From a virus, in UHGV virus genome UHGV-0095852: a DNA stretch of 28,110 nucleotides. The stretch is one strand, 5' to 3'. Shown piece after piece: positions 11,790 through 28,110 of the stretch. The translations under genes and the position numbers were made by a program. The notes under the pieces are model-generated. The model saw nothing but the letters and a program-made list of their open reading frames with translations, searched no databases and was not told the origin of the DNA. Each line of letters starts with the position of its first letter. Positions within the stretch are counted from its first letter, which is position 1.

Positions 11790-12493
11790 TCACCTCCCCA
11801 ACCGATCACCTGGAATTGCCCCATTTTGGGGTGATACCAGCGTTTTCCTCGGTGTTCAGCCTCCGACATCATCCGGTTAAAAGCATTCATGAAGGGAGAT
11901 AAGGCCACGATGGAACGACGCGACAATACCCCCTCTGGAGTTAAAAACTCATGTGTATCGGTGGGAATCCGGTAAGCGTTAACCAGGTTGCGACATTTGG
12001 CTTCAGTCAGGCCACATTTCGCCGCCAGCTGTCGGTAGCCAATGTAGCCTTCCGGAATATTGCCTTTCTTGATTTGCTCGACGGTTTCAGCGACCTGGCT
12101 AACCTTTGACTCAACAGCATGAAGCCGCTTTTGCTGCTGAACTGCATTTGCAGCCATTGCGGCGATCATCTCTATTTCGGTCAACGGCTGGCGTACTTGT
12201 TCTTCCAGTTCGCGCCAGCGGTCCACCAGCCGGGCGGTGAATTCGGGAGAGAGCTGCGCGACGACGATAATGCTATCGCGCTTGCCTTGCTCGCCTTCGA
12301 AGACGTAAGCCTCAACACTACGCCGTAGTCCTAAGTTATTGATTTTTTCGAAAACCTCAATTTGAGGACGAGCAATAACGCCACCTTTGGCTAATGTCTC
12401 AATAGTGCGTTTCACATTGTCATGACGTTTTCCCACCAGCTCCGCGATCTCAATGCTGGTCATTGATGGCTTTTCGAGAATGCAGATATCCAT
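11786..12493 (-). CDS. Rha-family phage regulatory protein (antirepressor-like)
   Basis: N-terminal MTSIEIAELVGKRHDNVKRTIETL matches the characteristic Rha N-terminal motif; GGAGG RBS 7 nt before ATG. Confidence 0.75.
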   Translation of the reverse strand: MDICILEKPSMTSIEIAELVGKRHDNVKRTIETLAKGGVIARPQIEVFEKINNLGLRRSVEAYVFEGEQGKRDSIIVVAQLSPEFTARLVDRWRELEEQVRQPLTEIEMIAAMAANAVQQQKRLHAVESKVSQVAETVEQIKKGNIPEGYIGYRQLAAKCGLTEAKCRNLVNAYRIPTDTHEFLTPEGVLSRRSIVALSPFMNAFNRMMSEAEHRGKRWYHPKMGQFQVIGWGGE

Positions 12494-13130: not shown

Positions 13131-14093
13131 TCATCCCCTAAATCCCGCAGGGATTGACCAATCCTCCCGGTCAAATTCAGACCGATAGCCACGCTGTTTC
13201 ATCAGGTCAAAGGCTTCACCAATGGTTGCACACCCCTGGGAGCCAGAATAATCCATTGAGAAATCCAGGGCACTGGATTGTTTAGGCTTATTCACTGCGG
13301 TAGCGGCACTACGTATCCATGCAAATTTTTTTGCCAGCTTTTCAGCGGTACGATACAGAGCCTGCCGTTTTGCGTGCCCCTCGTCTGAACGACGCTTTGC
13401 AGCTCTCGCTTTTGCCGCCGCCAGGCAGTGGTTGGTATGTTCTTCCCTGATTACTGGTTTTTTATCCAGTAATCCATTATCCGCTTGGGAACTATCTGCT
13501 GGTGAAGCCTTTGGCTGAACCGCGCATGATCTTTCTCTTCTTTTGGCTATAGAGTGACTCTTATTTTCTATTGGCTGTTCATTTTGAACATGGGGGGACT
13601 TGTTCAATTTGAACAGGGGGTTCCCAGTTTCAAAAAAATACCGAACCTTTGAAATCAACTGCTTAACCAGTTTTGTGGCGTTCGCAAATTTGATGCCCTG
13701 CTTACCCCCTATCTCCATTGCTACATGAATGAAGTGGAGAAATTGTGTTGTAAACCGGTATACGTTACACACCTGAGCATTGTTATTCGCTACCTGATGT
13801 TGCTTAACAAGCATTCCGCACTTCGTCGCTTCAGCAAATGCCCGGCGCACAGTAGAAATACTGCGTCCTGTAATCTCGGACATATCAGCATATGAGCGAC
13901 GGATCATGTATTCATCGGTAGCTCCTGCCAGGTTGGCGAACTCGGCAATAATGGCGCTATGTGAAGGGGAAAGAAAACCGCTATGACGAGCAAAAAAACT
14001 CAACTGATGACCTTTGATTTTTTTGTGGTATTCAGTGTTGTTTTTATACTCAGAAGTGTTGAAAGTTACTGAAACTGAATTTAAAATACTCAT
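13131..14093 (-). CDS. hypothetical HTH protein, 320 aa; possible RepL-like lytic replication protein with internal origin-like repeats
   Basis: HTH-like segment ISTVRRAFAEATKCGMLV; dense direct and inverted repeats inside the coding sequence at 13509-13656. Confidence 0.55.
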   Translation of the reverse strand: MSILNSVSVTFNTSEYKNNTEYHKKIKGHQLSFFARHSGFLSPSHSAIIAEFANLAGATDEYMIRRSYADMSEITGRSISTVRRAFAEATKCGMLVKQHQVANNNAQVCNVYRFTTQFLHFIHVAMEIGGKQGIKFANATKLVKQLISKVRYFFETGNPLFKLNKSPHVQNEQPIENKSHSIAKRRERSCAVQPKASPADSSQADNGLLDKKPVIREEHTNHCLAAAKARAAKRRSDEGHAKRQALYRTAEKLAKKFAWIRSAATAVNKPKQSSALDFSMDYSGSQGCATIGEAFDLMKQRGYRSEFDREDWSIPAGFRG

Positions 14094-14150
14094 CAGATAG
14101 TACCGTGAAAAATCTATCTACCGTATAAATCTATGTCCGGAGATTTATAC

Positions 14151-14189
14151 ACCCAAAAGCCGCTTCTCAGCGGCTTTTGCTTTTTTCGG
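14151..14189. terminator. rho-independent terminator, stem GCCGCT/AGCGGC, with TTTTGCTTTTTT on the plus side and TTTT on the minus side
   Basis: Hairpin 14159-14174 read directly; lies between the protease-like gene and the 320-aa gene. Confidence 0.5.
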
Positions 14190-14261
14190 CAGTCGCTACC
14201 GGAGCAGTGACCGCGATCCTACTCGATCACATCGGACAGGATCAACAGTGTATATAAATAC

Positions 14262-14283
14262 ACTATGTTAGAAATTTAACTTC
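14262..14283 (-). promoter_or_regulatory. operator-like motif, copy 6 (minus-strand reading GAAGTTAAATTTCTAACATAGT), overlapping palindrome AGTGTAT-ATAA-ATACACT
   Basis: Same TTTCTAACA core in the opposite orientation; intergenic. Confidence 0.35.
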
Positions 14284-14292
14284 ATGCAGCGG

Positions 14293-15291
14293 TTATGCCC
14301 GTCGCGAAACGAAGAGTAATGGGGTAGTATTTTTGCTATCCTTCGGCGATAACTCCGGCTCTTTCTTGCCTGATATCGGCAAGCCATAAGTCGCATTTGC
14401 CCCCAGAGATTCAAGCATCGCAGCCACTATGCGAGCATCATCTTCAGACTGCATACGGCAGAGCGCCCGACGCTGTTCTGCGCTGATAAAAACAGGCATT
14501 TCCTGGATAGCGTCACGCAAAATCCGACGGCATTGCTTTGCATTTTCCCCCTGGCTTTCCATCATCGCTGTTTGAGCGCGCAGCTTATCTCGAAGCTGTA
14601 TGTTTTCCACTTCAAGGAGCATCAATTCTGATTCCAGGGCTTCACGATGTGCAGATTCGAGCATGGCTTGCTGATTTTTCATTGCTGAAAAGTGGTGAAC
14701 CAGATCCGTAGCAGCGTTATCGGTAAAACCTTGTTCGATAAGTGCTGCATGAATAGCCGCATCGCGCTCTTCTGCTGATTCAAGCATCAGGCTTTTCTTG
14801 TCGAGGCTGATATAGTTAGGCACAGTTACGTAATCAAAGCCGTGGAAAGACTTTACCAGGGATACCGATGAATCTGGACCAGATGTAGCCCACGACCAAC
14901 CACCAGCACCAGAATTAATCATGCCCTGAACAATACGCCCGGTGTCTGTATCCAGTATTTCCTGCGTATGGGTAACAATGCCGTTGTCGTCAATCGAAAT
15001 GTCGATAGTCCTGTTGGATGGCACGTTCTCCAATACAACAGGCTTCCCATCTACCATCACAACAGAGACTTCCGGCAAGTTCAGGCTTTTCGTTTTGTTA
15101 TAGTGCATCGCCCGGCGACCATGACCGTAATAACCATACATCTCACCCAGCGCGATACGCTCTTTTGTTTCTGGCGAGTTGAATGTGTCTCGTACCGACT
15201 GAATGACGTAATTTCGGTTGTTCTGCGGTGTGTGTTTGCGGATTTTCTCTACCAGGGAGAAGCGATCCGTAACAGTATTCAGTGATTGCAT
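14293..15291 (-). CDS. putative prohead protease or scaffold protein (Pro-like)
   Basis: Placed directly after the portal-like gene; His- and Ser-containing N-terminal half and coiled-coil C-terminal half; assignment by context. Confidence 0.5.
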   Translation of the reverse strand: MQSLNTVTDRFSLVEKIRKHTPQNNRNYVIQSVRDTFNSPETKERIALGEMYGYYGHGRRAMHYNKTKSLNLPEVSVVMVDGKPVVLENVPSNRTIDISIDDNGIVTHTQEILDTDTGRIVQGMINSGAGGWSWATSGPDSSVSLVKSFHGFDYVTVPNYISLDKKSLMLESAEERDAAIHAALIEQGFTDNAATDLVHHFSAMKNQQAMLESAHREALESELMLLEVENIQLRDKLRAQTAMMESQGENAKQCRRILRDAIQEMPVFISAEQRRALCRMQSEDDARIVAAMLESLGANATYGLPISGKKEPELSPKDSKNTTPLLFVSRRA

Positions 15292-15304
15292 TATTTCCCT
15301 CCGG

Positions 15305-16987
15305 TTAATTGCTCATCACAAATTTTGCAAAGTTTATTAACTGTTCTGTCGTCCAGTTTTCCGGATCGTCACCGGACGACAACGGCGCGGATTCGTACAT
15401 ACCATGCTCGTTGTTTTGCTCTGATTCATTCGCCTTAAACTCTTTGATCATGGTGTTGAGAGTGTCATCGTCGATGTGCAACTGCTCGGTGAACAGATAA
15501 CGCATAAACGCGTCACTACCAGCCAGTTTCGGGTTGTTCTGGATCTGGTCCATAATTTGGGAGATGACAGCGACAAAGTTGGCGCGTGCATCCAGTTCCC
15601 GGTTTTCCTCTTCCTGGATAGCAGTGTTCATTGAGTTGAATTGCACGTCATAAGGACGGTTTTTTTCGGTGTAAACCTTCCCGTATTTATAAGCGAGGTG
15701 AATATCATGAAGCCGATAAATAGTTCGCTGGGCGGCCTGTCTGATCCAGTTCGCACGTAATGCGGCCTGGATAGCTGTTTGCTGCCAACCGCCTTCCCCA
15801 AGTCCACCACTCATCTGATCAGCCCAGCCAAGCATTGTTGCGTCAATGCCTAGGCTTGCAGCAAGCTGCCGGAGGTGAAACATAACGTCTTCGATACCAC
15901 TGATATCTGCGGGTATGGATTGCGTATCAATGGTGATGCCGTTCTTCCCATCGCCCATGACCGGGATCAGATGGTTAAGCACGGTCGGGATGGCGTTGGC
16001 ATTTATTGATCGCTGCGCCAGCATGTCACTGTGGCGCTTTAATGCCTGACTGACGCCTCGCGTATAGTTCGCGGCATTGACAGGATCGAGCGTATTAGTC
16101 GTCAGGGCGATAAGCCTGTCAATTTTTGCAGCGTTATTACGCGTAGATTTCAGCGCGGCAAGGGCAGCACATAGATTCAGGAATGGTTCGTAACTGTATT
16201 CCAGAAAAGACGTGCCATAGTTCTGTGTTTCAGTGAGCGGTTTGTCTTTCTGATCGCTCAACAGGGAATATCCCTTCGCCCCATAAGTCACGGGCATTAA
16301 TTTATGCTGCGGTGTCCAGTATGGGTTTTTCATCGCAACCAGGTTCCACGGTTCTGTGATCACCCGGCGCATACTTTCAGAATCCAGGATGTAATCACCC
16401 CCAAAGCCAACAAACTGGCTCCCCCGATAGAACTCCTGGATGAAGTGAGGCAATGTGTAATAACTCGACTCGATGCCCGTAATCCCTTTCCCCTGCTCGG
16501 CATAGGGACGAACATACGACACACCAAAAATAGCCATAATCATGGCCCATGACGGCAGGCCATCATTAATCATTGCCCCTAAATCGGCTGTTAACTCTTC
16601 ACACCTTTTGACGGATTCAGTATCTGCCCCGTCTTTTGGCGCAAGCATAAACGCAAGCCCCGTTTTTTTTGACGGTGCCAGAGCGTGCGCAATGTGAATA
16701 TTTAAGGCTGTGGAGATGGTTGGGCTTTTCGCCATCGTTTCCAGGATGTTGTACTTTTGCAGGCGGTCGCCGGGCAGTTCTGCCGAAATTGATACTGTAT
16801 CTGCCGCGCTTGTCATGCCATCGCTATTGCCACCCAGTATCCCCGGACGTAAAGCGGACAGACCAGAACGCGCAACGACACTATGACCGCTCGTAAAAAC
16901 GACCGGATCGGCAGGCGTGACATCGCCACTGTTGAAGGCTTTCTTCAATGCCGACAGAAAGCCTTTGTTTTTGTCTTTCGTTGCCAT
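15305..16987 (-). CDS. putative portal protein (Prt-like)
   Basis: 560-aa ORF followed by the protease-like gene; assignment by size and gene order, no motif verified. Confidence 0.5.
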   Translation of the reverse strand: MATKDKNKGFLSALKKAFNSGDVTPADPVVFTSGHSVVARSGLSALRPGILGGNSDGMTSAADTVSISAELPGDRLQKYNILETMAKSPTISTALNIHIAHALAPSKKTGLAFMLAPKDGADTESVKRCEELTADLGAMINDGLPSWAMIMAIFGVSYVRPYAEQGKGITGIESSYYTLPHFIQEFYRGSQFVGFGGDYILDSESMRRVITEPWNLVAMKNPYWTPQHKLMPVTYGAKGYSLLSDQKDKPLTETQNYGTSFLEYSYEPFLNLCAALAALKSTRNNAAKIDRLIALTTNTLDPVNAANYTRGVSQALKRHSDMLAQRSINANAIPTVLNHLIPVMGDGKNGITIDTQSIPADISGIEDVMFHLRQLAASLGIDATMLGWADQMSGGLGEGGWQQTAIQAALRANWIRQAAQRTIYRLHDIHLAYKYGKVYTEKNRPYDVQFNSMNTAIQEEENRELDARANFVAVISQIMDQIQNNPKLAGSDAFMRYLFTEQLHIDDDTLNTMIKEFKANESEQNNEHGMYESAPLSSGDDPENWTTEQLINFAKFVMSN

Positions 16988-17106
16988 GAGTCACCGCGAA
17001 ATGTTTTCAGTTTGCGGCAGCATAATCAGTATGTGATTTTTGATGATGGATCTTTTCAACTAGAAATATTGGCTGGCCCCTCTCGTAACAAAGTGAGGAA
17101 TAAAAC

Positions 17107-17135
17107 TTGAATATGCACATTGTGCGTATTAAGAT
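17107..17135 (+). promoter_or_regulatory. candidate sigma-70 promoter, -35 TTGAAT and -10 TAAGAT with 17-bp spacer
   Basis: Read directly; located about 35 bp upstream of the GGAG RBS of the 17171 gene. Confidence 0.3.
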
Positions 17136-17170
17136 TGAAAAAGTTGACCACTTTGCTGCGGAGAAATCCC

Positions 17171-17473
17171 ATGAAAAGCTCTTTAATTAATTCCAAATTA
17201 CACCAACTTGCTATCAAAAATCGAGTTCCTGCATGGTCGGTTTACATGCATATCAGCCGCGCATGTCTGAGCAATGAAAACATTTACAATCTGCAAATTC
17301 TAGGCCGGGAAGGAAGGACTTTGTTTAGCGTTGCAGAGGATTCCTATAAGGCCTGGGATATGCTGGATGACGCGTTAAGCCAATACGCGCAAACAGAAGA
17401 ATGCCAAAAAGAATGGGCCAGGTACTGTGATGAAGGGATGCCATGCTGCGGTCTGTTCGGCGCAGCTCTGTGA
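17171..17473 (+). CDS. hypothetical Cys-rich protein, about 100 aa
   Basis: ATG at 17171 with GGAG 8 nt upstream (the ORF track start at 17120 is a TTG without RBS); seven Cys, four of them in the last 25 residues. Confidence 0.5.
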   Translation: MKSSLINSKLHQLAIKNRVPAWSVYMHISRACLSNENIYNLQILGREGRTLFSVAEDSYKAWDMLDDALSQYAQTEECQKEWARYCDEGMPCCGLFGAAL

Positions 17474-17485
17474 ATCGATTCAACG

Positions 17486-17749
17486 ATGATATACTTCGTT
17501 GCGAATCACAGCATTGGCAAAGGGCATAATGTGAAACAACTCCCACCAAACACCCCGGAAACTATAATTGAAATCCGCCAGCGAATGGGGCTAACGCAAA
17601 CGGAGTTGGCCCACAAAATGGGGTATCAACTCCGGGCTTGGCAATTCAAAGAAGATAGAAATAAACCGAGACGCCTTATGGCTGGTGAATTTGAGTACCT
17701 GTTATTGCTTGCTGGAGAGCATCCTGAATTTATTCTTACACCACGCTAA
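17486..17749 (+). CDS. XRE-family helix-turn-helix DNA-binding protein; likely start at GTG 17531
   Basis: HTH signature IRQRMGLTQTELAHKMGY; AAGGG RBS 6 nt before the GTG at 17531. Confidence 0.6.
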   Translation: MIYFVANHSIGKGHNVKQLPPNTPETIIEIRQRMGLTQTELAHKMGYQLRAWQFKEDRNKPRRLMAGEFEYLLLLAGEHPEFILTPR

Positions 17750-17771
17750 AAAAACCCGCCTGACGGCGGGA
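17749..17771 (-). terminator. rho-independent terminator of the darA-type operon (stem CCCGCC/GGCGGG, then T7)
   Basis: Hairpin 17756-17771 with seven T on the minus-strand reading. Confidence 0.65.
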
Positions 17772-17783
17772 TTATCAATCATA

Positions 17784-18077
17784 TCAATTCACATCAATGT
17801 CTTGATATGATTCGCCAGTATCGTCTTCGTCGTCAGGATCTCCTTCCACCTCTGGCCACTCAACCTCCCAGCCAACAGTTTCCAGGCTCCGCAGAACAAA
17901 CACCCCATCGGCATGAATGGTATTCACGATCCCCATTGCGGAATTTGTGTTGATAAAGCGTATATCTTGCGCAATATTTTCTTCCGAAATATCGCCTTCA
18001 AATATACGCAATGTGCCGTCATCAGAGCATTCAACAATCCCTCTAATCCCAGCGGGACTCACAATGCTATACTTCAT
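17784..18077 (-). CDS. hypothetical acidic protein, 97 aa, last gene of the operon
   Basis: ATG with AAGGAG RBS at 7 nt; highly acidic C-terminus. Confidence 0.55.
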   Translation of the reverse strand: MKYSIVSPAGIRGIVECSDDGTLRIFEGDISEENIAQDIRFINTNSAMGIVNTIHADGVFVLRSLETVGWEVEWPEVEGDPDDEDDTGESYQDIDVN

Positions 18078-21000
18078 TTTGCAACTCCTTCATACATCCC
18101 AAGAAAAATTCCAGCACGCCGTCATTGTTTAATACAGAGTTAGTCGCCTGCTCCGGATCGGCATACATCTGCAAGGCCATAGAAAAAATCTCAGTCGCCC
18201 TGCAATTGCTTAATGCAGGTGGCTTTGATATAAATCTGCCGCTGACAGAACTTACCGTATTTTCCATATAAATTTTAGACATATATCCATGACTTAGGTC
18301 GGTTCGCACCAAATACTCAGCACTGCCACGGCTACCAATATTATGATAAGAAACTTTACCGTTAGTTTTTGATTTAATGAAGGCTTTGGCCCTCTCCAAT
18401 AGATGGGGATTTGAATGTTCTATATGGTGACCTATTTCATGCCATAATACACGCTCGTGATCACTATTAGCATCAATTGTTATATTCCCATTTCGACTTG
18501 CAAAAGCACGAACATTGTTCTCGTGGTTAATATTTTTTAATGTAGATAAAGTCCCTCCTGAAATAATATAGGCTTTTTCAATCGTCTCGCGAATACTGTA
18601 TGCTTTACGGGAGAAAGTTTCATTATCGTGACCACTTAACTGCTCTGCTTCATCAGAAATAGCAATCCCACGACTCCATTCCTTAGACTGGTCATGTGAC
18701 ACATTTGACGATTCAAGAATCATGTCAAATGCGGCTCTGACTTTTTTATGTACTACATTTTCAAGCGCATTAGGATAGGCTTTTTGTCCACGTGTTAATG
18801 AAGCTATTTCATATAGTTCTGCTTGCAAGTCTTCCGGTATGTCCAGATTAAAAACAAGCATTTTTTTCAGATCATATCCAATCCCATGATCATTCTGGTG
18901 CAAAACCTCAGCAAGGTAGTCAGTGAGTTTTTCCTTATTTGACCTAACGTTATTGATTTGTTCTATAGTAAAGTCAACACGCTCCTTGATTCCGTAATAT
19001 GAGGAATGCTCTGCTAATTCCACTATCTCCTTAAGCCTGACAAGTGTCTCAATATACGCATCAGCGATCTCCTCTGCCGTTAGTTCAGAGCTAACTCCGA
19101 CACTGGCTGTTATTTTCCTACCAGCCGCCATAATATCGTCGATATTATGCAAGCTCTTTTTGAATAACTTCAAAGTATTTTGGATTATGCGCACCATCTC
19201 TTCTGCGCTTCCAGCTTTATTCATTTCCTTTCTAAATCTTAAAGCTGTTTTCTCTGCAATAGACGCTGGAGATTTTAAATAGTTACCTAACCAAACAAGA
19301 CAACCATTGCGCAATTCATCAATGCTAAAGTCATCAGGAATATGTTTTGCTGCATTATGTAAAACACGTATAAATTGTTCAGCGGGCACGCCTTCTTCTG
19401 ATATGTTGCAAAACGTTTCAATATCACAATCAATATTTCTTTCATCTGCGAGCGAAGGAGCTTCATCTCCTTTTTCAATCGCGTCACGCAGTGCGTTAGC
19501 ATAAAAATTGCTGCGTTGATAAGACAATAACATCGTTGTTAACACAGCGTCGCTGTATCCATAACGTTTAGCCCACTCCTTAATCTCATTAACGGTGACA
19601 TTGCGAATATAAAAACCAAGTTCCAAAAATACATTGCGCTTTATTTTTTTTGCGGACTCCTTAATTTTTTCTGACACCTTCACGATTCGGATCAAGTCCT
19701 CCACGCTGGTCGCATCAGCAATTAGCTTTGAAATGTATGGTTCGACATCTCCTGAAACCGATTCAAACATGGCGAAATTAAGCCCTTTACCTTCGCCATA
19801 CTCAGCCTCAATTTCATCAGAAACGGCAGATAAAATGCTACGCAGATCGACATCTCCGCCGCCGAACATATCGCCTAACGCTTGTTGCTGGTGAATAAGT
19901 TCATCGTTAATTTTTTGCGCCAGTTTCTTGAAAGCTGCCCCCATTCGCTTAGCGCTTCGGTTGTTGGCAACAATAAACAGAGCAAGCGCTTCTGCTTCCG
20001 GAGTGCTATCTCCAAACAATCCACGCTGTGCGATCACCTCTTCTACTGCCTGACCGTTATCTTTTGCTTCACGAACAAGGTTAATTGCTTCCTGTAGCGC
20101 GGCAATAGCCTGTTTATCCAGACTATTCAATTGCTCTATACCGTCTACCAGTCCGGTTACCGTGTCATGGTGAACATCACCTGAAAGCGACTGCATTTGC
20201 GCAAAATCGCTGGCTGCCGTATTTAATGCGGTAAGGATGTTACGCATTTCCGGATCTGGCTCTTCCGCCACCAGCCGAACAAGCCTTTCATCCTTGTACG
20301 CTTTGGCAAAAATTGCATTCTGGATGCGGTCGATAAGTTGTTTCGTTGGACGCCCATCGGCAGTAAGCAAACCTGCCGTCGCCGTATCACCTATTTCGCG
20401 CAAAAACGCACGAATAAACGCATCATTGGACCGCGCCAGTAGATTTCCATCATCTGAAGGATTAAATAGCGCCATGACGCTCTCAGTGAGAAATTGCGCA
20501 TCCGCATACGCTTTTTCACTTGCAGCCATCTCTTGCAGATCGCTGATGTTTGAATCGCGGGCAAATTGTGCGCGGTCTACATCTGTGAGTCTTTCTCGCA
20601 CCAGTACGGGCATAGACATTTGTGAAATGTCGTCAGGATTCAGACCAAACTCTTTTGCATGATCGATCAGGTACTGGCGATATTCATCCGCCTGCCCTTG
20701 CTCATAGGCACGCCAGATACCCATGCTCCTTCCGTTGCCGGATTCAACAACGTTGTCCGGACCAACTATCGGCGCTCCGTGGCTGCTCATGCCGGAATCC
20801 GTTAATTGTGCCGGGCGTAAATTGGAGGCAATACGGTTAACCTGGAGTTTGCTGGATAGCCGTGTACGGTCACGTGGCTGGAGTTCTTCCGGGAAGGCCG
20901 GATTAATCGTACCGTCAAGGTTGTTCGAAATGATCAGACTGCTGGCATCAACGACCTTAAAAGCCGTCTTTACCTCTGCCCCTTTACTGGTGACTACGTA

Positions 21001-21108
21001 ACTACTGCGCCCCTGGCGTGTTTCTCGCCTCTCTAATGAAGAAACCAGCTCAATAACACTGTTAATGTCTGCTGCTTCGGATAGCGCGGAAGTAACTGAC
21101 TTGTTCAA
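18067..21108 (-). CDS. DdrB-like large internal head protein (by synteny) with a C-terminal HExxH motif
   Basis: 1013-aa ORF, TTG start with AAGGGGAG RBS; HEIGH encoded at 18427-18441. Confidence 0.75.
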   Translation of the reverse strand: MNKSVTSALSEAADINSVIELVSSLERRETRQGRSSYVVTSKGAEVKTAFKVVDASSLIISNNLDGTINPAFPEELQPRDRTRLSSKLQVNRIASNLRPAQLTDSGMSSHGAPIVGPDNVVESGNGRSMGIWRAYEQGQADEYRQYLIDHAKEFGLNPDDISQMSMPVLVRERLTDVDRAQFARDSNISDLQEMAASEKAYADAQFLTESVMALFNPSDDGNLLARSNDAFIRAFLREIGDTATAGLLTADGRPTKQLIDRIQNAIFAKAYKDERLVRLVAEEPDPEMRNILTALNTAASDFAQMQSLSGDVHHDTVTGLVDGIEQLNSLDKQAIAALQEAINLVREAKDNGQAVEEVIAQRGLFGDSTPEAEALALFIVANNRSAKRMGAAFKKLAQKINDELIHQQQALGDMFGGGDVDLRSILSAVSDEIEAEYGEGKGLNFAMFESVSGDVEPYISKLIADATSVEDLIRIVKVSEKIKESAKKIKRNVFLELGFYIRNVTVNEIKEWAKRYGYSDAVLTTMLLSYQRSNFYANALRDAIEKGDEAPSLADERNIDCDIETFCNISEEGVPAEQFIRVLHNAAKHIPDDFSIDELRNGCLVWLGNYLKSPASIAEKTALRFRKEMNKAGSAEEMVRIIQNTLKLFKKSLHNIDDIMAAGRKITASVGVSSELTAEEIADAYIETLVRLKEIVELAEHSSYYGIKERVDFTIEQINNVRSNKEKLTDYLAEVLHQNDHGIGYDLKKMLVFNLDIPEDLQAELYEIASLTRGQKAYPNALENVVHKKVRAAFDMILESSNVSHDQSKEWSRGIAISDEAEQLSGHDNETFSRKAYSIRETIEKAYIISGGTLSTLKNINHENNVRAFASRNGNITIDANSDHERVLWHEIGHHIEHSNPHLLERAKAFIKSKTNGKVSYHNIGSRGSAEYLVRTDLSHGYMSKIYMENTVSSVSGRFISKPPALSNCRATEIFSMALQMYADPEQATNSVLNNDGVLEFFLGCMKELQNEV

Positions 21109-21177
21109 AATACACTCCCCTTACATAGAAAGCAGGAAGTGTAAAAAGTGTGTGATTTATGGACTTACAGGAAAGTG

Positions 21178-21199
21178 AAAGGGGCATTTCAGCCCCTTT
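21178..21199 (-). terminator. stem-loop (AAAGGGGC / GCCCCTTT) between the DdrA-like and DdrB-like genes, possible attenuator
   Basis: 8-bp stem read directly, followed by a U-rich stretch on the minus-strand reading. Confidence 0.3.
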
Positions 21200-21201
21200 G
21201 A

Positions 21202-21570
21202 TTAGCCTGCATAACCGTTGGCTTTCACCCAGCTTATGGTCTGCTCTTTAGCCTGTTCCAACGTAAGGAACTCGCCTACATAGTTTGAGATCCCACGTAG
21301 CGCATCAATAAATTCCATTTGCGTGGACTTTGTGAATGCACCTCCAAGGAAGTCTGTCACTATCTTAGGAATGTCACCTGCAACAGTATCTGGCTGCGCC
21401 TGCGGATCCGATACTGATTGGGCCGCAGCCCCAAGCCCCAGTTTTAGCATCACATCAACAATCTGCTTACCAATGGCGACGCGTTGTAATACTGGCGCGG
21501 TTTTCTGCGCCTGCATTAAATCTGATAGCTCTTTACCCAATTTCAGACGGTCTAAAACAGAGATAGTCAT
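21202..21570 (-). CDS. DdrA-like small protein (by synteny), 122 aa
   Basis: Start overlaps the stop of the DarA-like gene (TAATG). Confidence 0.55.
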   Translation of the reverse strand: MTISVLDRLKLGKELSDLMQAQKTAPVLQRVAIGKQIVDVMLKLGLGAAAQSVSDPQAQPDTVAGDIPKIVTDFLGGAFTKSTQMEFIDALRGISNYVGEFLTLEQAKEQTISWVKANGYAG

Positions 21571-23507
21571 TAAGCACCTCCCTGCTGAATTTCAGCCAGA
21601 ATGTTGATCAGGTAGTCAACTGCTGCGCCAACCGTTGATTCGTTCTCGTCGTATCGACCAGCACTGATAAGAGCGTTTGCAGCTTCCTGCACATGGTCAA
21701 GTTCGGCACTGATTACCGTCAGATCGCGAGATGTAAACTGCACCGGGACGGATTTAAGGTACTCCAACGCTTTATCTGCTTCCTGATCAGCTTCAGTTGC
21801 CGCTTCTTCAGCGTCTTCCGGCGTTGGCTGTTGCTCTGGTGCTGTTTGTGGGTGTGATTCTGGCTCAACTACAGGTGCTAATTCAGGCTCTGGCGTTACT
21901 TCGTTTGAATGATTTTGAAGGGCGTTATATACGTCCATAATGAAAAGGTTCTCCCCATCACCAAGTGGATACGCCACGTTTGGAAACGCTTTGCGGAAAA
22001 GAATTTTCACTTGCGCCTTGAATGTTTTCAGGTCACTGCCAAACAGGTCTACATAGCCATCAATATGTTTCGACATGCTGGACACAACCAATTGGCCTGC
22101 AAAATCTTTCAGCTCATCTTCATCAGGAAGATAGAGCAACTCGTACTGGCTGACTTCTTCATCTGTCAGTTTACGGTCATACGTAATGATACCGTGACGA
22201 GCATATTCGTAATACTGATCAGCCTGGTCAGGACGATCAAGCACGGCTTTATTTCCATCCGGCACAGCACCAACACCAGCCGGGCGAGATTGAAGTGCAT
22301 AGTGGTATTTACCTACATCCTGGCTCTCTGGTTGTGATACTGGGTTCGTCTCGGGGTCTGTCTGTGGTGGTTCGGGGTCTTCCTGCTGGCCTGGTAACAC
22401 ATCAACTTTATATTTATCTGCGTTATGCTCTCGGTAGGCTTTAAGTAATTTGGTTGCAGCATCTGCCAAACTGCCTCCTTTGACAGCACTGGCATCAATA
22501 CTGAATTTACCTTCAGGTGCTACTATCGTAACGAAATTGTCACTGCCGGACGTGACATAATTAACTTCAGCGCCATTATCCAGCACTGTTTTTCCGTCAA
22601 TGGCAAGATTATGTTTTACATGTCGCAGCTGGTCGCTAAACGCTCGTTCTTTCGTTTTTTCACCTTTAGCAGACAACAATTTATCGCGTTTTGCTTGTAA
22701 TTCCTCGTTGATGGCTTTCTGGGCATCAAGTTTTTTTTGCATCTCCGTAAGAGCAGCACGCTTTTCAGTCAGCCCACGTTGCGCAACTTCCACCTGATCA
22801 ATCATTATTGACCGTTCTTCTGCCAGTTTATCTGCTTCATTGAGATAACTCTCAATATCTGCCTTCATTTTGTCCTGGCGCTCTTTTGCTTTCTTAAATT
22901 TTTCGCTGTTACGCTCAATCAAATTAGATAGCGCCTGGCATACCTGGCTTAAAGAAACATCTCTCCCACCAATCGGGGCGACAACGTGAGTTACGTTACG
23001 CTTATTAAGTAAAAACTGAAATGCAACAAGCTCGTCGTTACTCTTTATTTTTGCCCCGTCAGCTGTTGGAGAGTGGAAAATTATGCTTGTACTCTGCCCG
23101 TCAGTAAGCGGTATCTGCGCGGTCAAAACAGGGATATTAGCTACCCGACGTACACGACCGATAATCGCACCACCAATACAATTACGTCCATTTTCATCGG
23201 TCCCAGCTTCATCAGTCCCTGCCATAATATTCGTACCATTCAGGCCACGATTCAGCGCACGGACGAAAGCTCGCATTGTTTGAGCTAACCGAATTCTGGT
23301 TGTAGTTATGGACTCAAACATAGCTTCGTCAGACACAACCAGAATTTCATTGCCCATATAGGCAAGCTCAATATCTTCTAAGGTCGCCGCCTCAAAAATC
23401 AGGTCATCTTCGCTTAATTCTTCTGAAGACCAGCGACTTGGCATATAGCCGGGGATCGTATCAGCAAAAGTAGACTGAATATTAATTCGTAAAGGATTGT
23501 TAATCAT
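21570..23507 (-). CDS. darA: DarA-like internal head / antirestriction protein
   Basis: About 645 aa with a central coiled coil; start reassigned to ATG 23507 (GGAGG 6 nt upstream, overlaps upstream stop); size and position match the P1 darA operon as recalled. Confidence 0.75.
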   Translation of the reverse strand: MINNPLRINIQSTFADTIPGYMPSRWSSEELSEDDLIFEAATLEDIELAYMGNEILVVSDEAMFESITTTRIRLAQTMRAFVRALNRGLNGTNIMAGTDEAGTDENGRNCIGGAIIGRVRRVANIPVLTAQIPLTDGQSTSIIFHSPTADGAKIKSNDELVAFQFLLNKRNVTHVVAPIGGRDVSLSQVCQALSNLIERNSEKFKKAKERQDKMKADIESYLNEADKLAEERSIMIDQVEVAQRGLTEKRAALTEMQKKLDAQKAINEELQAKRDKLLSAKGEKTKERAFSDQLRHVKHNLAIDGKTVLDNGAEVNYVTSGSDNFVTIVAPEGKFSIDASAVKGGSLADAATKLLKAYREHNADKYKVDVLPGQQEDPEPPQTDPETNPVSQPESQDVGKYHYALQSRPAGVGAVPDGNKAVLDRPDQADQYYEYARHGIITYDRKLTDEEVSQYELLYLPDEDELKDFAGQLVVSSMSKHIDGYVDLFGSDLKTFKAQVKILFRKAFPNVAYPLGDGENLFIMDVYNALQNHSNEVTPEPELAPVVEPESHPQTAPEQQPTPEDAEEAATEADQEADKALEYLKSVPVQFTSRDLTVISAELDHVQEAANALISAGRYDENESTVGAAVDYLINILAEIQQGGA

Positions 23508-24120
23508 GCTCATCCTCCAGGCGCGCGATTTCTTCTTTAAGAGCACGTGTCTTAGCTACTTCCTGAGACAAGGCAGCTTTAACATTACCCGTATCTTGCA
23601 TTACTTTGTCTGACTTGCTCTGGAGTTTAGACAGTTTGTCGTTAGCATTAGCGATATCTTCACGGAGTGCATCACGTGATTCTTTCGCTTCAGCTAATTT
23701 CTGAGCGTTAGATTTAACTCCCTGCCGCTTCTTATTTCCGTCATCAATATTTTTTGCTGCACGAGCAAGTTTTCGAGCTAATGACTTCTGGAAAGAAGTT
23801 GCTCCACGATTAAATAAAGCCGCAAGAGATTGCCCCAAAGCCGACATTGTTTTTACTGGCTTGAACGGTACTGTTTTACCATTCAGTTTGATCCCAGATA
23901 TATCACCGGTATCGTTAACCTGAACTTCCATTGTCTGTTCATCAATACCAATAAGGGTAAACGTGCGCGTCATGATCCCATCTTTCTTCCTGCCATTACT
24001 TGCAGGGATCACCCTCGCTATCTTGTAACCACCTTTGCTGATTTCTTTGACGAGTTTTGACAGCCCCTTTTCGTTTAACTCATCATAATTAAGAAGAACA
24101 TAATTATTCTTATTTGACAT
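23500..24120 (-). CDS. Hdf-like protein (by synteny, upstream of the DarA-like gene)
   Basis: Start reassigned to ATG 24120 (AAGGAG at 6 nt); coiled-coil C-terminal half. Confidence 0.55.
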   Translation of the reverse strand: MSNKNNYVLLNYDELNEKGLSKLVKEISKGGYKIARVIPASNGRKKDGIMTRTFTLIGIDEQTMEVQVNDTGDISGIKLNGKTVPFKPVKTMSALGQSLAALFNRGATSFQKSLARKLARAAKNIDDGNKKRQGVKSNAQKLAEAKESRDALREDIANANDKLSKLQSKSDKVMQDTGNVKAALSQEVAKTRALKEEIARLEDEHD

Positions 24121-24556
24121 CCCAGTCTCCTTCACGCTTTTCGATCGTAAACTGGCGCTCTATGCAGTCATTGATAGGGAAAATGCGATAAAGCGGATTC
24201 AGTCGACAGTTACCGTTAGTCAATGTGACTTTCAGATCCCACTTCGTTGGTTCAAGATATTTCGTATCGATGAGCAAATACTCTTCTCTCTCACCGCGTT
24301 TTGAGGCGTCAACTGGTCGCGTTTTCCCTGAAATAACCACAGATGGATTTTTCAGGTCTTGCAACCAATATTCGATTTGAGCATTGCTGACCCAGCTTCG
24401 CTTAACACGTAGCGAAACAGGAAATGCTATAGCGGATTCTTTCACTACAGCGTCACCAATACTCAAAATCTCAACACTCTTGCGACGAAAAATGAAACGG
24501 TCAATGATGGCAACAAATGCCATGATAAAAATGAAATAATTTCCAAAGTTACCCAT
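24110..24556 (-). CDS. LydB-like protein (by synteny), N-terminal transmembrane segment
   Basis: Hydrophobic N-terminus YFIFIMAFVAII; overlaps the upstream gene stop. Confidence 0.5.
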   Translation of the reverse strand: MGNFGNYFIFIMAFVAIIDRFIFRRKSVEILSIGDAVVKESAIAFPVSLRVKRSWVSNAQIEYWLQDLKNPSVVISGKTRPVDASKRGEREEYLLIDTKYLEPTKWDLKVTLTNGNCRLNPLYRIFPINDCIERQFTIEKREGDWDVK

Positions 24557-24882
24557 TATTTCTCTCCACCTTTTCCCCCATTCGCTATTACGCTTAAGAG
24601 ATTCAAGACGTTACTAGCTCTGGACTTCAAGCCCTGTAAAATTTCACTACCGTTGTTACTGGCAATCAGAACAACGCAGAAAATGATACCTTCAGGCCAT
24701 TCTTGGCTAACCGCCACCCCATACCCCGCAAGCCCGGCTGTTACCGCAGTAAACAATTCACTCGCAAGATTGAGCAGGGACGCAGAAATGCGCCCGTCTC
24801 TAACTCCGAGAAGGAATACGCCGGTTCCACTTAGTAGGGATGTTATGACTACTACAGCCAGATTTTCATAATCTGCAAACAT
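24556..24882 (-). CDS. holin-like small membrane protein (LydA-like, by synteny)
   Basis: 108 aa with several hydrophobic stretches; GGAGG RBS. Confidence 0.5.
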   Translation of the reverse strand: MFADYENLAVVVITSLLSGTGVFLLGVRDGRISASLLNLASELFTAVTAGLAGYGVAVSQEWPEGIIFCVVLIASNNGSEILQGLKSRASNVLNLLSVIANGGKGGEK

Positions 24883-24985
24883 ACCCCTCCAGAAATAACA
24901 TCTAATGCGCCACTAACTTAGTCAGTTTGTTATTTCCTTACAGGACATCTTCTAGAATCGTATCCTTAGCATACAAGGGAGACAT

Positions 24986-25270
24986 ATGCTTATTGGATAC
25001 ATTCGCATTTCAACAAATGACCAAAACACCGCTTTGCAACGCCCCCCTTGAAAGCGCAGGATGTGAGCTAATTTTTGAGGGCAAAGCGAGTGGCAAAAAG
25101 GCTGAACGCCAAGGGTTAAAAAAGGTTCTGCGTATGTTTTCCAGAGATGAAGCCTTGGTCGTATAGCAGTTAGAGCGGCTTGAGGGCAATTTAGTTGTGC
25201 TGCTGTAATCGCTGCGTGCCAGATGAATAAACCTTCTGAATCCCACTAATTCTATCGACATCTGTACACC
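24986..25270 (+). pseudogene. degenerate serine invertase (Hin/Gin/Cin family) remnant
   Basis: Starts MLIGYIRISTNDQNTALQR then shifts frame at a C-run; a second frame continues with CELIFEGK ... VV; W codon replaced by TAG at 25164-25166; later SIDICTPMQR matches SIDTSTPMGR of the intact invertase. Confidence 0.6.
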
Positions 25271-25418
25271 AATGCAGCGCTCACGATGCAATTAAGATCA
25301 ACATTACAGGGATGGTTTTCATTAGTGGTCGGTCCGACACAAGATGCATCGAATTGATGCGCCGCGCGATAAGTGTATCTATTCCCTCGAGATAAACTAC
25401 ATCGACGCGGCATTTGTA

Positions 25419-25991
25419 TTACAACTCAGTTTGAGTTTGGCGCTTCTCTACAGGGTGATAACGATAAATCGTCGATACACCGATATCGTAAATAATTGCC
25501 AACTGTTTCCTGCTGTAGCCATTTTCGATCAACCTCGCTATTTGCTCATGTTGTTCTTTTGTCAACTTCGGGCGACGTCCGCCAATGCGTCCCTGTTCGC
25601 GTGCAGCTGCCAGTCCAGCCAGGGTTCTCTCAACAATTAATTCACGTTCCATTTCTGCTAAAGCCCCCATGACGTGAAAAAAGAAACGCCCCATGGGTGT
25701 TGAGGTGTCAATGCTGTCTGTCAGACTACGGAAATTAACACCTTTTTCCCGCAGCTCCTCAATAAGCGTGATCAGGTGTTTCATACTTCTGCCAAGCCTG
25801 TCCAGCTTCCAGACAACCAGCGTATCTCCTTCTGATAACGTTCTGAGCAGCTTTTTCAATCCTGGTCTGGCTGACTTTGTTCCGCTGATTTTATCTTCAA
25901 AAATTAGTTCACATCCTGCGCAGTTCAGTGCATTTCTTTGTAAATCTGTGTTTTGGTCATTTGTTGACACACGAATGTAGCCAATTTGCAT
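25419..25991 (-). CDS. serine DNA invertase, Hin/Gin/Cin/Pin/Min family
   Basis: MQIGYIRVSTNDQNTDLQRNAL resolvase N-terminal domain with catalytic Ser, C-terminal HTH; start set at ATG 25991 (GAGG 9 nt upstream) rather than 26000. Confidence 0.92.
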   Translation of the reverse strand: MQIGYIRVSTNDQNTDLQRNALNCAGCELIFEDKISGTKSARPGLKKLLRTLSEGDTLVVWKLDRLGRSMKHLITLIEELREKGVNFRSLTDSIDTSTPMGRFFFHVMGALAEMERELIVERTLAGLAAAREQGRIGGRRPKLTKEQHEQIARLIENGYSRKQLAIIYDIGVSTIYRYHPVEKRQTQTEL

Positions 25992-26045
25992 GAAAAACAT
26001 CCTCTTTGTTTAGTTAAAAATACATAGTTGGTATAGGTAGGGATT

Positions 26046-26071
26046 AAGACTAAAACGTTGGTTTGGGGGAA
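26046..26071 (+). other. 26-bp recombination crossover-type site 1 (minus-strand reading TTCCCCCAAACC AA CGTTTTAGTCTT)
   Basis: Half-site ending in AAACC, 2-bp core, degenerate right half; 55 bp from the invertase start. Confidence 0.55.
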
Positions 26072-26491
26072 GGCTCGGCGCTGCCCGTTGGTGTGCCTGT
26101 TCCGTGGCCCTCAGCCACGCCGCCAACGGGGTGGCTGAAATGTAACGGAGCAGCATTTTCTTCTGAAAAGTACCCAAATCTGGCAAAGGTTTACCCCACT
26201 AATAAATTGCCGGATTTACGGGGAGAATTTATTCGCGGTTGGGATGATGGGCGCGGGATTGATGCGGGACGTACCCTGCTTTCAGGGCAGGATGGTACAA
26301 GTTTTTCTCATTACGGAGGTAATTTCGACATTGGGTCTGGTCATTCAATCAATAACTATGACCAAATTGTTTCTAACCAACCAGGATTTTCCCGTTTTTC
26401 ATTTGCAGGGCCTTCACGAGGTGATGGGGTTAATTATGTAACCATTCGTCCTCGTAACATTGCGTTTAATTATATCGTAAGGGCGGCATGA
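26063..26491 (+). CDS. tail fibre C-terminal variable cassette 1 (promoterless gene segment)
   Basis: Conserved start GEGSALPVGVPVPWPSATPPTGWLKCNG, unique middle, conserved end RPRNIAFNYIVRAA; no ATG or RBS of its own. Confidence 0.7.
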   Translation: MGEGSALPVGVPVPWPSATPPTGWLKCNGAAFSSEKYPNLAKVYPTNKLPDLRGEFIRGWDDGRGIDAGRTLLSGQDGTSFSHYGGNFDIGSGHSINNYDQIVSNQPGFSRFSFAGPSRGDGVNYVTIRPRNIAFNYIVRAA

Positions 26492-26510
26492 AAACGTTGG
26501 TTTAGGGGAA
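26485..26510 (+). other. 26-bp recombination crossover-type site 2 (minus-strand reading TTCCCCTAAACC AA CGTTTTCATGCC)
   Basis: Same structure as site 1, at the junction between cassette 1 and cassette 2. Confidence 0.55.
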
Positions 26511-26930
26511 GGCTCTGCATTGCCCGTTGGTGTACCTGTTCCGTGGCCCTCAGCCACACCGCCAACGGGGTGGCTGAAATGTAACGGAGCAGCATTTTCT
26601 TCTGAAAAATACCCAAATCTGGCAAAGGTTTACCCCACTAATAAATTGCCGGATCTACGGGGCGAATTTATTCGAGGTTGGGATGATGGACGAGGTGTGG
26701 ACAATGGGCGAGCATTATTAAGCAGCCAAGAGGCTACAAACTTTTCTCAGCGTGCCGGAAATATAGGCGATGGTGCGGGGCACGCAATTAATTTTCATGA
26801 TGGCATCGTCGGAAATCAGCCAGGATTTTCACGATTTAATTTCACCAGTAACTCTGTAGGTGATGGTATAAATTTTGTTGCTGTCAGGCCGCGAAATATC
26901 GCATTTAATTACATCGTAAGGGCGGCATAA
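26499..26930 (+). CDS. tail fibre C-terminal variable cassette 2 (promoterless gene segment)
   Basis: Frame open from the crossover site (GRHENVGLGEGSALPVG ...); same conserved ends as cassette 1, different central part. Confidence 0.7.
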   Translation, partial: GLGEGSALPVGVPVPWPSATPPTGWLKCNGAAFSSEKYPNLAKVYPTNKLPDLRGEFIRGWDDGRGVDNGRALLSSQEATNFSQRAGNIGDGAGHAINFHDGIVGNQPGFSRFNFTSNSVGDGINFVAVRPRNIAFNYIVRAA

Positions 26931-26949
26931 AAACGTTGGTTTAGGAGAA
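26924..26949 (+). other. 26-bp recombination crossover-type site 3 (minus-strand reading TTCTCCTAAACC AA CGTTTTTATGCC)
   Basis: Same structure as sites 1 and 2, at the junction between cassette 2 and cassette 3. Confidence 0.55.
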
Positions 26950-27399
26950 GGCTCGGCGCTGCCCGTTGGTGTACCTGTTCCATGGCCCTCAGCCACACCT
27001 CCAACGGGGTGGCTGAAATGCAATGGTGCAGCATTTTCTTCTGAAAAGTACCCAAATCTGGCAAAGGTTTATCCCACCAATAAATTACCGGATTTACGCG
27101 GTGAGTTTATCCGTGGTTGGGATGATGGGCGAGGTGTGGATGCGGGAAGGGTCATCTTAAGCATACAGGGGTGGTTAACAGGAAGTCATTATCATAATAT
27201 TCGGTCATGGGACGCGTGGGATAACACGGTATTGGTGCCAAATGACAGAGGGGGGGATAGTCTGTTGTCGACAGATAACGCCGTCCAAGAAGGAGCGATT
27301 AATGGTAAATTTACCAGTCAATACAGAACGGAGTTATCTGGGGGGAATGAAACCCGCCCACGTAACATTGCCTTCAATTATATTGTGAGAGCAGCATAA
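26938..27399 (+). CDS. tail fibre C-terminal variable cassette 3 (promoterless gene segment), followed by a tail fibre assembly gene
   Basis: Frame open from site 3 through the stop at 27399; the ORF track shows only the part after the first GTG (27136). Confidence 0.7.
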   Translation, partial: GLGEGSALPVGVPVPWPSATPPTGWLKCNGAAFSSEKYPNLAKVYPTNKLPDLRGEFIRGWDDGRGVDAGRVILSIQGWLTGSHYHNIRSWDAWDNTVLVPNDRGGDSLLSTDNAVQEGAINGKFTSQYRTELSGGNETRPRNIAFNYIVRAA

Positions 27400-28010
27400 T
27401 GGATAATGCGATATTAAATAGCGAACTTATAGCCATACAGGCAGGAAACATTATCGTTTATAACTATGATGGTGGTAATCGGGAATATATTTCTGCATCA
27501 ACTGAATATCTTGCTGTTGGCGTTGGTATTCCGGCAAATTCTTGTTTGGATGCTCCAGGCTCACATAAAGCAGGTTATGCGATTCTCCGTTCAGAGGATT
27601 TAAGTTCATGGGAGTATGTGCCAGATCATCGTGGCGAAACTGTCTATAGCATTGACACTGGGAATCCCGAAGAAATCACGGTGTTGGGTGACTATCCGGA
27701 AAATACAACCACTATCGCCCCGCTAACACCATACGACAAATGGGATGGAGAGAAATGGGTGGTTGATACTGAGGCTCAACATAGTGCAGCTGTAGATGCA
27801 GCAGAAACAAAACGTCAGTCATTGATTGATACTGCGATGGATTCCATTAGTCTGATTCAGTTGAAATTACGGGCTGGACGGAAGTTGACGCAGGCAGAAA
27901 CCACGCAGCTTAACTCCGTGCTAGATTATATAGACGAGCTGAACGCGATGGATTTAACCACGGCACCAGATCTCAACTGGCCTGAAAAACAACTTTCTAC
28001 AGCCAGTTGA
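27399..28010 (+). CDS. tail fibre assembly protein (chaperone)
   Basis: Start overlaps the cassette 3 stop (TAATG); C-terminal TTAPDLNWPEK matches the conserved tail fibre assembly C-terminal motif. Confidence 0.8.
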   Translation: MDNAILNSELIAIQAGNIIVYNYDGGNREYISASTEYLAVGVGIPANSCLDAPGSHKAGYAILRSEDLSSWEYVPDHRGETVYSIDTGNPEEITVLGDYPENTTTIAPLTPYDKWDGEKWVVDTEAQHSAAVDAAETKRQSLIDTAMDSISLIQLKLRAGRKLTQAETTQLNSVLDYIDELNAMDLTTAPDLNWPEKQLSTAS

Positions 28011-28015
28011 TATAA

Positions 28016-28110
28016 TTAATCCGCCCTCACAATATAATTAAATGCAATATTACGAGGGCGGGTTTCTAAGCCAGCAGTACCTAAATTAGCTACGGACTGT
28101 TTATATGTTT
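28016..28110 (-). CDS. 3' end of a tail fibre gene or cassette (partial, 5' end beyond the window)
   Basis: Minus-strand frame open to the window edge and ending GLETRPRNIAFNYIVRAD-stop, the same C-terminal signature as cassettes 1-3. Confidence 0.6.
   Translation of the reverse strand, partial: TYKQSVANLGTAGLETRPRNIAFNYIVRAD
28021..28063. terminator. palindrome CCGCCCTC ... GAGGGCGG between the convergent assembly gene and minus-strand fibre segment; possible bidirectional terminator
   Basis: 8-bp perfect arms read directly; followed by GTTTCT on the plus side. Confidence 0.35.

Follow-up and report, generated by a model that had tools for sequence, protein, structure and literature searches.

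The Min multiple DNA-inversion system of the E. coli 15T- plasmid p15B was reportedly described by Sandmeier, Iida, Meyer, Hiestand-Nauer and Arber in 1990, by Iida et al. in the same year and by Sandmeier, Iida and Arber in 1992. In the first of these accounts, p15B is said to have six sites. Min is placed in the same family as Cin of phage P1, Gin of Mu, Hin of Salmonella and Pin of e14. The DNA analysed here, a single stretch of 28,110 nucleotides (the window), contains three repeats, which are very probably the crossover sites of a multiple-inversion switch of the Min (p15B), Cin (P1) and Gin (Mu) type in a P1-like phage-plasmid of E. coli. The switch lets the prophage put alternative receptor-binding tips on its tail fibre. 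The locus is a further example of the system described in 1990 and adds no new principle of site-specific recombination.

The three sites are located on the plus strand. Site 1, which is proximal to the invertase gene, occupies positions 26046-26071 and reads AAGACTAAAACG-TT-GGTTTGGGGGAA with its core at 26058-26059. Site 2 (26485-26510) reads GGCATGAAAACG-TT-GGTTTAGGGGAA with the core at 26497-26498, and site 3 (26924-26949) reads GGCATAAAAACG-TT-GGTTTAGGAGAA with the core at 26936-26937. A first-pass annotation of this DNA had quoted three minus-strand strings as crossover sites of the same orientation; all three are present at 26046-26071, 26485-26510 and 26924-26949, and they do share one orientation. 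The inner half conserved in the sites of the window is GGTTTRGGRGAA, the core is TT, and the outer half varies with its context. In the 28-kb window, exactly three copies of the 12-mer AAACGTTGGTTT are present, all within sites 1-3, and exact matches in the window to the inner half with its core, TTGGTTTNNNNGAA, are likewise confined to the three sites. On the minus strand of the window, no site comparable to sites 1-3 was found. A near-match with one mismatch on that strand (23938-23951) was rejected as a site, being at chance level.

The spacing of the sites corresponds to a 439-bp period within a direct-repeat family of ~300 nt, each repeat spanning the C-terminal coding end of a cassette, the site, and the conserved N-terminus of the next cassette. 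Repetition alone is therefore no proof of a site, because the three copies sit inside this repeat family and are not independent events. What establishes the repeats as crossover sites is their context and the comparative evidence.

Each site opens a stretch of about 145-155 codons, which encodes a tail-fibre C-terminus. Silent cassette 1 (26060..26491, plus strand) runs from GLGEGS to RPRNIAFNYIVRAA with its stop codon at 26489-91 and matches the Pfam domain Collar (1e-14). Silent cassettes 2 (26499..26930, stop at 26928-30) and 3 (26938..27399, stop at 27397-99) are on the same strand, with Collar matches of 9e-15 each. In their alignment, the 78 residues at the N-terminus of the cassettes hardly vary, the middle is variable, and the end RPRNIAFNYIVRAA is invariant. 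The C-terminal motif common to them is 14 residues long, and the ~230 bp following each site are ~90% conserved between cassettes. The cassettes are promoterless and encode the last 145-155 residues of the tail-fibre protein, that is, its receptor-binding tip; a promoter scan found neither a promoter for the cassettes nor one for the invertase gene.

The stop codon of cassette 3 overlaps the ATG of a tail-fibre assembly (chaperone) gene as TAATG. This gene (27399..28010, plus strand, 203 aa, Pfam Caudo_TAP 5e-30) is single-copy and stands at the pivot between plus- and minus-oriented cassette arrays, a position which it also holds in relatives. Beyond it, the 3′ end of a fourth, inverted cassette (28016..28110, minus strand), indicated by inverted repeats I1-I3, is cut by the end of the window; these 95 nt comprise the last 31 codons, ending in RPRNIAFNYIVRAD, and the stop codon. 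The array of the window thus consists of three direct sites and the end of an inverted cassette, by which at least one more site is implied.

The invertase gene is located at 25419..25991 on the minus strand and is transcribed away from the cassette array. Its product is a serine DNA invertase of 190 aa, starting with MQIGYIRVST, with the Pfam domains Resolvase (PF00239, 2e-51) and HTH_7 (PF02796, 3e-15). Residues 1-185 align with the Mu Gin structures 4m6f/3uj3 (E 4e-92, about 75% identity) and the catalytic Ser9 is present within YIRVSTNDQ. In Hin, residues Q151, R154 and L155 together with the basic residues at 47, 48 and 51 contact Fis and the enhancer; these are specific to invertases and absent from resolvases (PMC3798978). 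By sequence and by the Gin alignment, Q150, R153 and L154 and K46, K47 and R50 of the window's enzyme correspond to them. A comparison with NCBIfam returned sub-threshold matches only, and a large protein search with the invertase returned generic names only ("recombinase family protein", "Pin-like", "Fin"), with no match named Min.

A putative recombinational enhancer (Fis-binding region) was located at 25902..25973, within the 5′ portion of the invertase gene. It is homologous to the enhancer that the P1 record gives for cin nt 19-90, with 59 of 72 positions identical, and includes two G-N13-C motifs in the same columns as in Mu gin. Since the region is coding, its conservation is not independent evidence of an enhancer. 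A second, P1-cin-like invertase gene is represented by a remnant of its 5′ 300 nt only (24984..25281, plus strand), which runs opposite to the intact gene; it is 79% identical to P1 cin nt 1-307 and in relatives it is annotated as a frameshifted partial recombinase.

The window has the backbone of a P1-like E. coli plasmid-prophage, as its gene content and its matches show. The neighbouring genes include LydB, DarA, ddrB, RepL, P1 gp16 and tail-fibre R, and the surroundings are those of a Min-type locus, namely a P1-related plasmid-prophage with lysis and dar genes beside the switch and the R-S tail-fibre operon downstream. The window matches 206 plasmid records, 198 of which are predicted to be non-mobilizable, and those listed are mostly 90-100 kb. 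In detail, NZ_CP135715.1 is 100% identical over window positions 14000-25455 (11.4 kb of backbone), is mosaic beyond and has a different cassette region. At the DNA level the backbone has diverged from P1, blastn matches to P1 being limited to the two invertase regions. No record among plasmids, phages and E. coli genomes was identical across the cassette region, a scan of IMG/VR with exact 40-mers gave 11 loci, none of them identical, and of the 10 contigs obtained by looking up the exact invertase protein, none was identical to the window.

The boundaries of the sites were examined by comparison with known sites and with 20+ related E. coli P1-like phage-plasmids. The sites of the window align column for column with cixL/cixR of P1 and gixL/gixR of Mu. 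In the P1 record, cixL reads CAATCCTAAACC-TT-GGTTTAAGAGAA and cixR reads TTATCCAATACC-TT-GGTTTAAGAGAA, with the crossover annotated at the same TT, between its two T's; in the Mu record, gix reads TTATCCAAAACC-TC-GGTTTACAGGAA. The earlier proposal of a geometry of the hix/gix/cix type is upheld, as a 12-bp half, a 2-bp core and a second 12-bp half match the columns of cix and gix. One of the halves had been called degenerate. It is the outer half, which falls into three context classes, reading in related loci AAGACTAAAACG beside the invertase, GGCATRAAAACG at cassette ends and TTCTTRATTACC in Sc, the constant part of the tail-fibre gene. These classes combine freely with the inner-half variants GGGGG, AGGGG, AGGAG and GGGAG, and every listed site, whether of the window or of a related plasmid locus, has TT as its core. 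For instance, relatives combine the outer half of site 1 with three different inner halves, and also with a cassette family that is unrelated.

Unrelated cassettes define the inner boundary. Three unrelated cassette families of the plasmids and a fourth in P1 have only GGTTTNNNNGAA in common and diverge at the next base, continuing as GGCTC..., ACGATAAATC..., GCGGCAA... and, in P1, CTCGGTACC... Similarly, one relative (L023) is homologous to the window only as far as site 1, the similarity being lost at 26072, the base that follows it.

The reading frame through the sites is consistent with their use as fusion points. The frame through site 1 is closed just upstream by the stop codon TAA at 26051-53, and the outer halves of sites 2 and 3 contain the stop codon of the preceding cassette. 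Sc reads ...AAT TAC CTT GGT TTG GGG GAA..., in which the TT core takes codon positions 2-3 (cTT), and on the cassette side the core again takes codon positions 2-3 (gTT). Exchange at the core would be in frame, because TT has the same codon positions on both partners. The first-pass annotation had predicted such an in-frame fusion, for which these codons and a fused ORF in a relative (L016) now provide the evidence. It had also read N-V-G-L-G through the site. The frame (N-V-G-L-G-E-G) is correct, but N-V never enters the fusion protein, since Y-L of the constant part replaces it; the product is ...S-V-L-N-Y-L-G-L-G-E-G-S..., to which the cassette contributes from G-L-G-E-G on.

Joined forms of the same cassettes are found in relatives. 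The module of cassette 3 and the assembly gene is present in L016 and L011 (98-99% identical), where it is inverted relative to the invertase and joined to Sc at the core, the homology starting at window position 26936 in L016 and 26933 in L011. L007 shows a junction with the Sc half-site for a cassette ~94% identical to cassette 2, with homology from 26497. In L016, a 588-aa tail-fibre ORF (TTG start) ends with cassette 3 and is followed by the same assembly gene, and in L002 the annotated tail-fibre protein of 965 aa has cassette-type sequence as its in-frame C-terminus. A cassette of opposite orientation in L002 is 97% identical to cassette 1.

An inverted partner outside the window had been postulated, and this agrees with the present results. 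Neither strand of the window holds an inverted crossover site, and for this reason the partner is deduced from relatives, in which the end of Sc is formed by an inverted site, TTCTTRATTACC-TT-GGTTT....GAA. Probably, therefore, the constant part of the tail-fibre gene of this element lies beyond the window and ends in the same inverted sequence. Relatives that share the module have their nearest inverted site 1582 bp from site 3, with the Sc site further on; in L009, which is 99.3% identical, the same 1582 bp separate the two sites. A module identical to the fourth cassette is located at 11715-12212 of L002, with its site at 12217(-), and the fourth cassette's own site is accordingly predicted about 400 bp beyond the end of the window.

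The number of sites per array in the relatives ranges from 2 (L016 and L011) to 9, a maximum reached among relatives with the identical invertase in L018, where 5 sites point one way and 4 the opposite way. Complete arrays are convergent, with plus sites, the assembly gene and then minus sites, with two exceptions. In L008, which contains an N, the invertase-proximal site and a Sc-type half-site share a strand. In L019, on an 822-kb contig, the assembly gene is present and the locus includes neither an AAGACT-type nor a Sc-type outer half. Both irregularities may be misassemblies. By our own reasoning, the convergent pattern would be the sole arrangement closed under inversions between inverted sites.

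On these grounds a mechanism may be outlined, several steps of which are taken from the family. The Sc site, or another inverted site, would recombine with one of the sites of the window, so that the intervening DNA flips, and the inversion would fuse the chosen cassette in frame to the constant part (...NYL|GLGEGS...). As in the family, an invertase dimer would bind each site and make a 2-bp staggered cut at TT, with strand exchange by a 180-degree rotation of subunits. The enzyme would be active only in a Fis/enhancer invertasome on supercoiled DNA, in which inverted sites are aligned. The three direct sites would then keep alternative tips in reserve, any of which one inversion with an inverted partner could bring into use. 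A single exchange between two direct repeats would bring non-complementary cores together. Since activation is confined to the invertasome, direct-repeat sites would not normally be deleted. The control against deletion that the first reading of the sequence had expected is indeed a long-established, built-in property of Fis/enhancer-dependent invertases, according to the literature on the selectivity of the invertasome.

The direct arrays could be more than passive stores. Occasional deletion or intermolecular exchange catalysed by the invertase might lead to loss and gain of cassettes and to their traffic between phage-plasmids and prophages, with co-transcription of the chaperone being phase-variable in addition. 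Among plasmids with an identical or nearly identical invertase, the sites number 2 to 9. The same cassette families are found in many chromosomal prophages, and in L013 a deletion junction from a cassette site to a secondary site inside the invertase gene lies exactly at TT. Since the assembly gene is at the pivot of the array, every inversion would flip it, and its co-transcription with the tail-fibre gene would thus become phase-variable; we know of no earlier examination of this point. On balance this extension is considered rather unlikely.

Of lower probability still is a fossil switch, in which the sites are genuine and of the Min/Cin type, whereas the partner, the function of the enhancer or the expression of the invertase has been lost and the cassettes are permanently silent. 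Such decay does occur in the group, as the invertase gene of L013 is truncated and fused to a cassette, and P1-like plasmids with truncated invertases or lost segments have been published. In the Ec-050 patient time series of a related plasmid, moreover, the four plasmids are all the same isomer and no inversion was seen, and the partner site is not within the window. On the contrary, the invertase ORF of the window is intact, the identical protein is encoded on 698 contigs, and TT core and inner half are kept in all three sites. Near-identical modules are found in both orientations among relatives. In addition, of the 10 draft contigs that encode the identical invertase, 7 end within the array, as does the window, and breaks of this kind are expected where DNA is repeated or heterogeneous. 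A lost function is therefore judged improbable for this locus.

An even smaller chance is given to switching driven by RecA-dependent homologous recombination or gene conversion between the ~230-bp blocks, with the 26-bp element as just conserved coding sequence. At ~90% conservation, blocks of this length could also rearrange cassettes by homologous recombination, and the ~300-nt direct repeats, the 78 nearly invariant N-terminal residues and the common 14-residue motif at the C-terminus would speak for this. Relatives carry from 1 to 8 cassettes, a variation which needs events of gain and loss beyond inversion alone. Nevertheless, cassettes without homology past the 26 bp (L020, L021 2786, L023 1718 and P1) carry the same inner half-site and core. 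Partners are exchanged exactly at TT at the invertase-proximal and Sc junctions, even though these lack homology on the outer side, and a dedicated Gin-like invertase adjoins the array.

Least credible of all, and rejected, is the reading of the three ORFs as independent small tail-protein genes whose repeats are shared 5′ ends without recombination: TTG starts at 26063 and 26520 and the annotation of RefSeq equivalents as separate CDS ("phage tail protein") would fit it, but no promoter-like site precedes any of the three on the plus strand, the open frame that crosses the site is blocked just upstream of it, and the same sequences form the in-frame C-terminus of a long tail-fibre protein in relatives (965 aa in L002; the 588-aa ORF of L016).

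The multiple-inversion switch accounts for an annotation that RefSeq gives for hundreds of P1-like phage-plasmids of E. coli, a group of which some members carry resistance genes: strings of small "phage tail protein" genes adjoin a gene for a "recombinase family protein". It also accounts for draft assemblies that break at the locus. With the coordinates of the sites and the sequence of the partner, the host-range repertoire can be read from sequence and the isomers can be counted in long reads. The value of these results is practical and not conceptual.

Among the systems compared, the R64 shufflon (Rci/sfx) is a functional analogue: its numerous sites lie in both orientations, the gene pilV has alternative C-terminal cassettes, and inversion prevails over deletion. 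It differs in its tyrosine recombinase, its asymmetric 19-bp sfx sites and its other mechanism of directionality. The present locus is not a shufflon, because its recombinase is a serine enzyme, and its sites are of cix geometry; this identification was rejected. Hin/hix of Salmonella flagellar phase variation and Pin of e14 belong to the same family of Fis/enhancer-dependent invertasomes, but Hin flips a promoter and not coding cassettes, and both systems have two sites only.

Gin/gix of Mu provides the closest solved homologue of the invertase, the same orientation of the gene to its proximal site and the same site geometry. On the other hand, its core is TC in place of TT, its sites are only two and its cassettes are different. 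Cin/cix of P1 shares the 26-bp site with the same TT core, the inner half being GGTTTAAGAGAA in P1 as against GGTTTRGGRGAA in the window. In P1 the crossover is also inside TT, the enhancer is in the 5′ end of the invertase gene and the switch acts on the tail-fibre gene S. P1 differs in having two sites only, with a single 4.2-kb segment, Sv cassettes of ~530 aa and two assembly genes. Moreover, cin points towards its segment and cixL overlaps the 3′ end of cin, whereas the invertase gene of the window, which is 71% identical to cin in DNA, points away.

Compared by description, the likeness to Min of p15B is the most extensive. The host element is a P1-related plasmid-prophage in both. Each has a Din-family serine invertase beside more than two crossover sites; these lie in both orientations in p15B and in relatives of the window, and probably do so in the present element, of which the window shows three direct sites and the end of an inverted cassette. 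Both have short alternative 3′ cassettes of a tail-fibre gene, and here the in-frame fusion of one of them to a constant 5′ part is seen in L016. A cin-like 5′ remnant is found next to the active invertase gene, the P1 record noting a cin-5′ fragment for p15B, to which 24984-25281 of the window corresponds. The difference is in the number of sites, since p15B reportedly has six, as against 2-9 in the relatives of the window and three, with at least one more implied, in the window itself.

By sequence comparison, turnover is much faster in the inversion region than in the remainder of the element. In detail, the plasmid L006 (NZ_CP135715.1) shows 100.0% identity to the window across 11.4 kb of backbone (window 14000-25455) but departs from it over 25456-28110: its invertase gene is 98.3% identical, and its cassette set, with 7 + 1 sites, is mosaic and differs from that of the window. 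Similar invertase-cassette modules (87-90% identical) are found in many chromosomal prophages.

The tail-fibre assembly (chaperone) gene (window 27399-28010) is present in a single copy, at the point where the convergent array pivots, and is therefore flipped by every inversion. In the isomers of two related loci (L016 and L018) this gene follows the tail-fibre gene, downstream and in the same orientation, whereas in those of three others (L002, L003 and L006) it converges on the tail-fibre gene. Among the ten draft-genome contigs encoding an identical invertase, seven end inside the cassette array (L021-L027), as does the window at 28110. Such breaks are expected, because short-read assembly cannot resolve repeated cassettes or mixed isomers.

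A natural deletion derivative is provided by L013 (IMGVR_UViG_3300030379_000127), with its junction at 4757-4761, equivalent to window 25636-25661 with the TT at 25647/8. The invertase gene is cut short at ...AATTAATTCACG-TT and is there fused to the GGTTTGGGGGAA of a cassette. The junction falls at a TT with the same polarity as in the cassette sites, and looks as though a directly oriented secondary ("quasi") site had served as the recombination partner. An event of this kind would have removed the 5′ half of the invertase gene, the putative enhancer and the proximal crossover site. The overlap at the junction is 5 bp (ACGTT), and a microhomology-mediated deletion may alternatively have produced the junction.

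A 2279-aa ORF (window 4081-10920, minus strand) is probably the counterpart of the antirestriction protein, DarB-like, that P1-type phages encode. By blastn, similarity to the compared P1 region (record nt 30000-39000) is absent from the backbone except in two invertase regions. The lineage is therefore distant from P1 in DNA, while being P1-like in protein.

Apart from the intact invertase gene, the first ~300 nt of a P1-cin-like invertase gene remain at window 24984-25281 (plus strand, 79% to P1 cin), running in the opposite direction. With this remnant the enhancer region would be present twice; relatives have it annotated as a partial, frameshifted recombinase. A similar fragment exists in the P1-related plasmid p15B, according to a note in the P1 record.

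The biggest array seen is that of L018 (3864-8934), which adjoins an invertase identical to that of the window and includes nine crossover sites, five in one orientation and four in the other. This number exceeds that of the p15B Min system, which reportedly has six.
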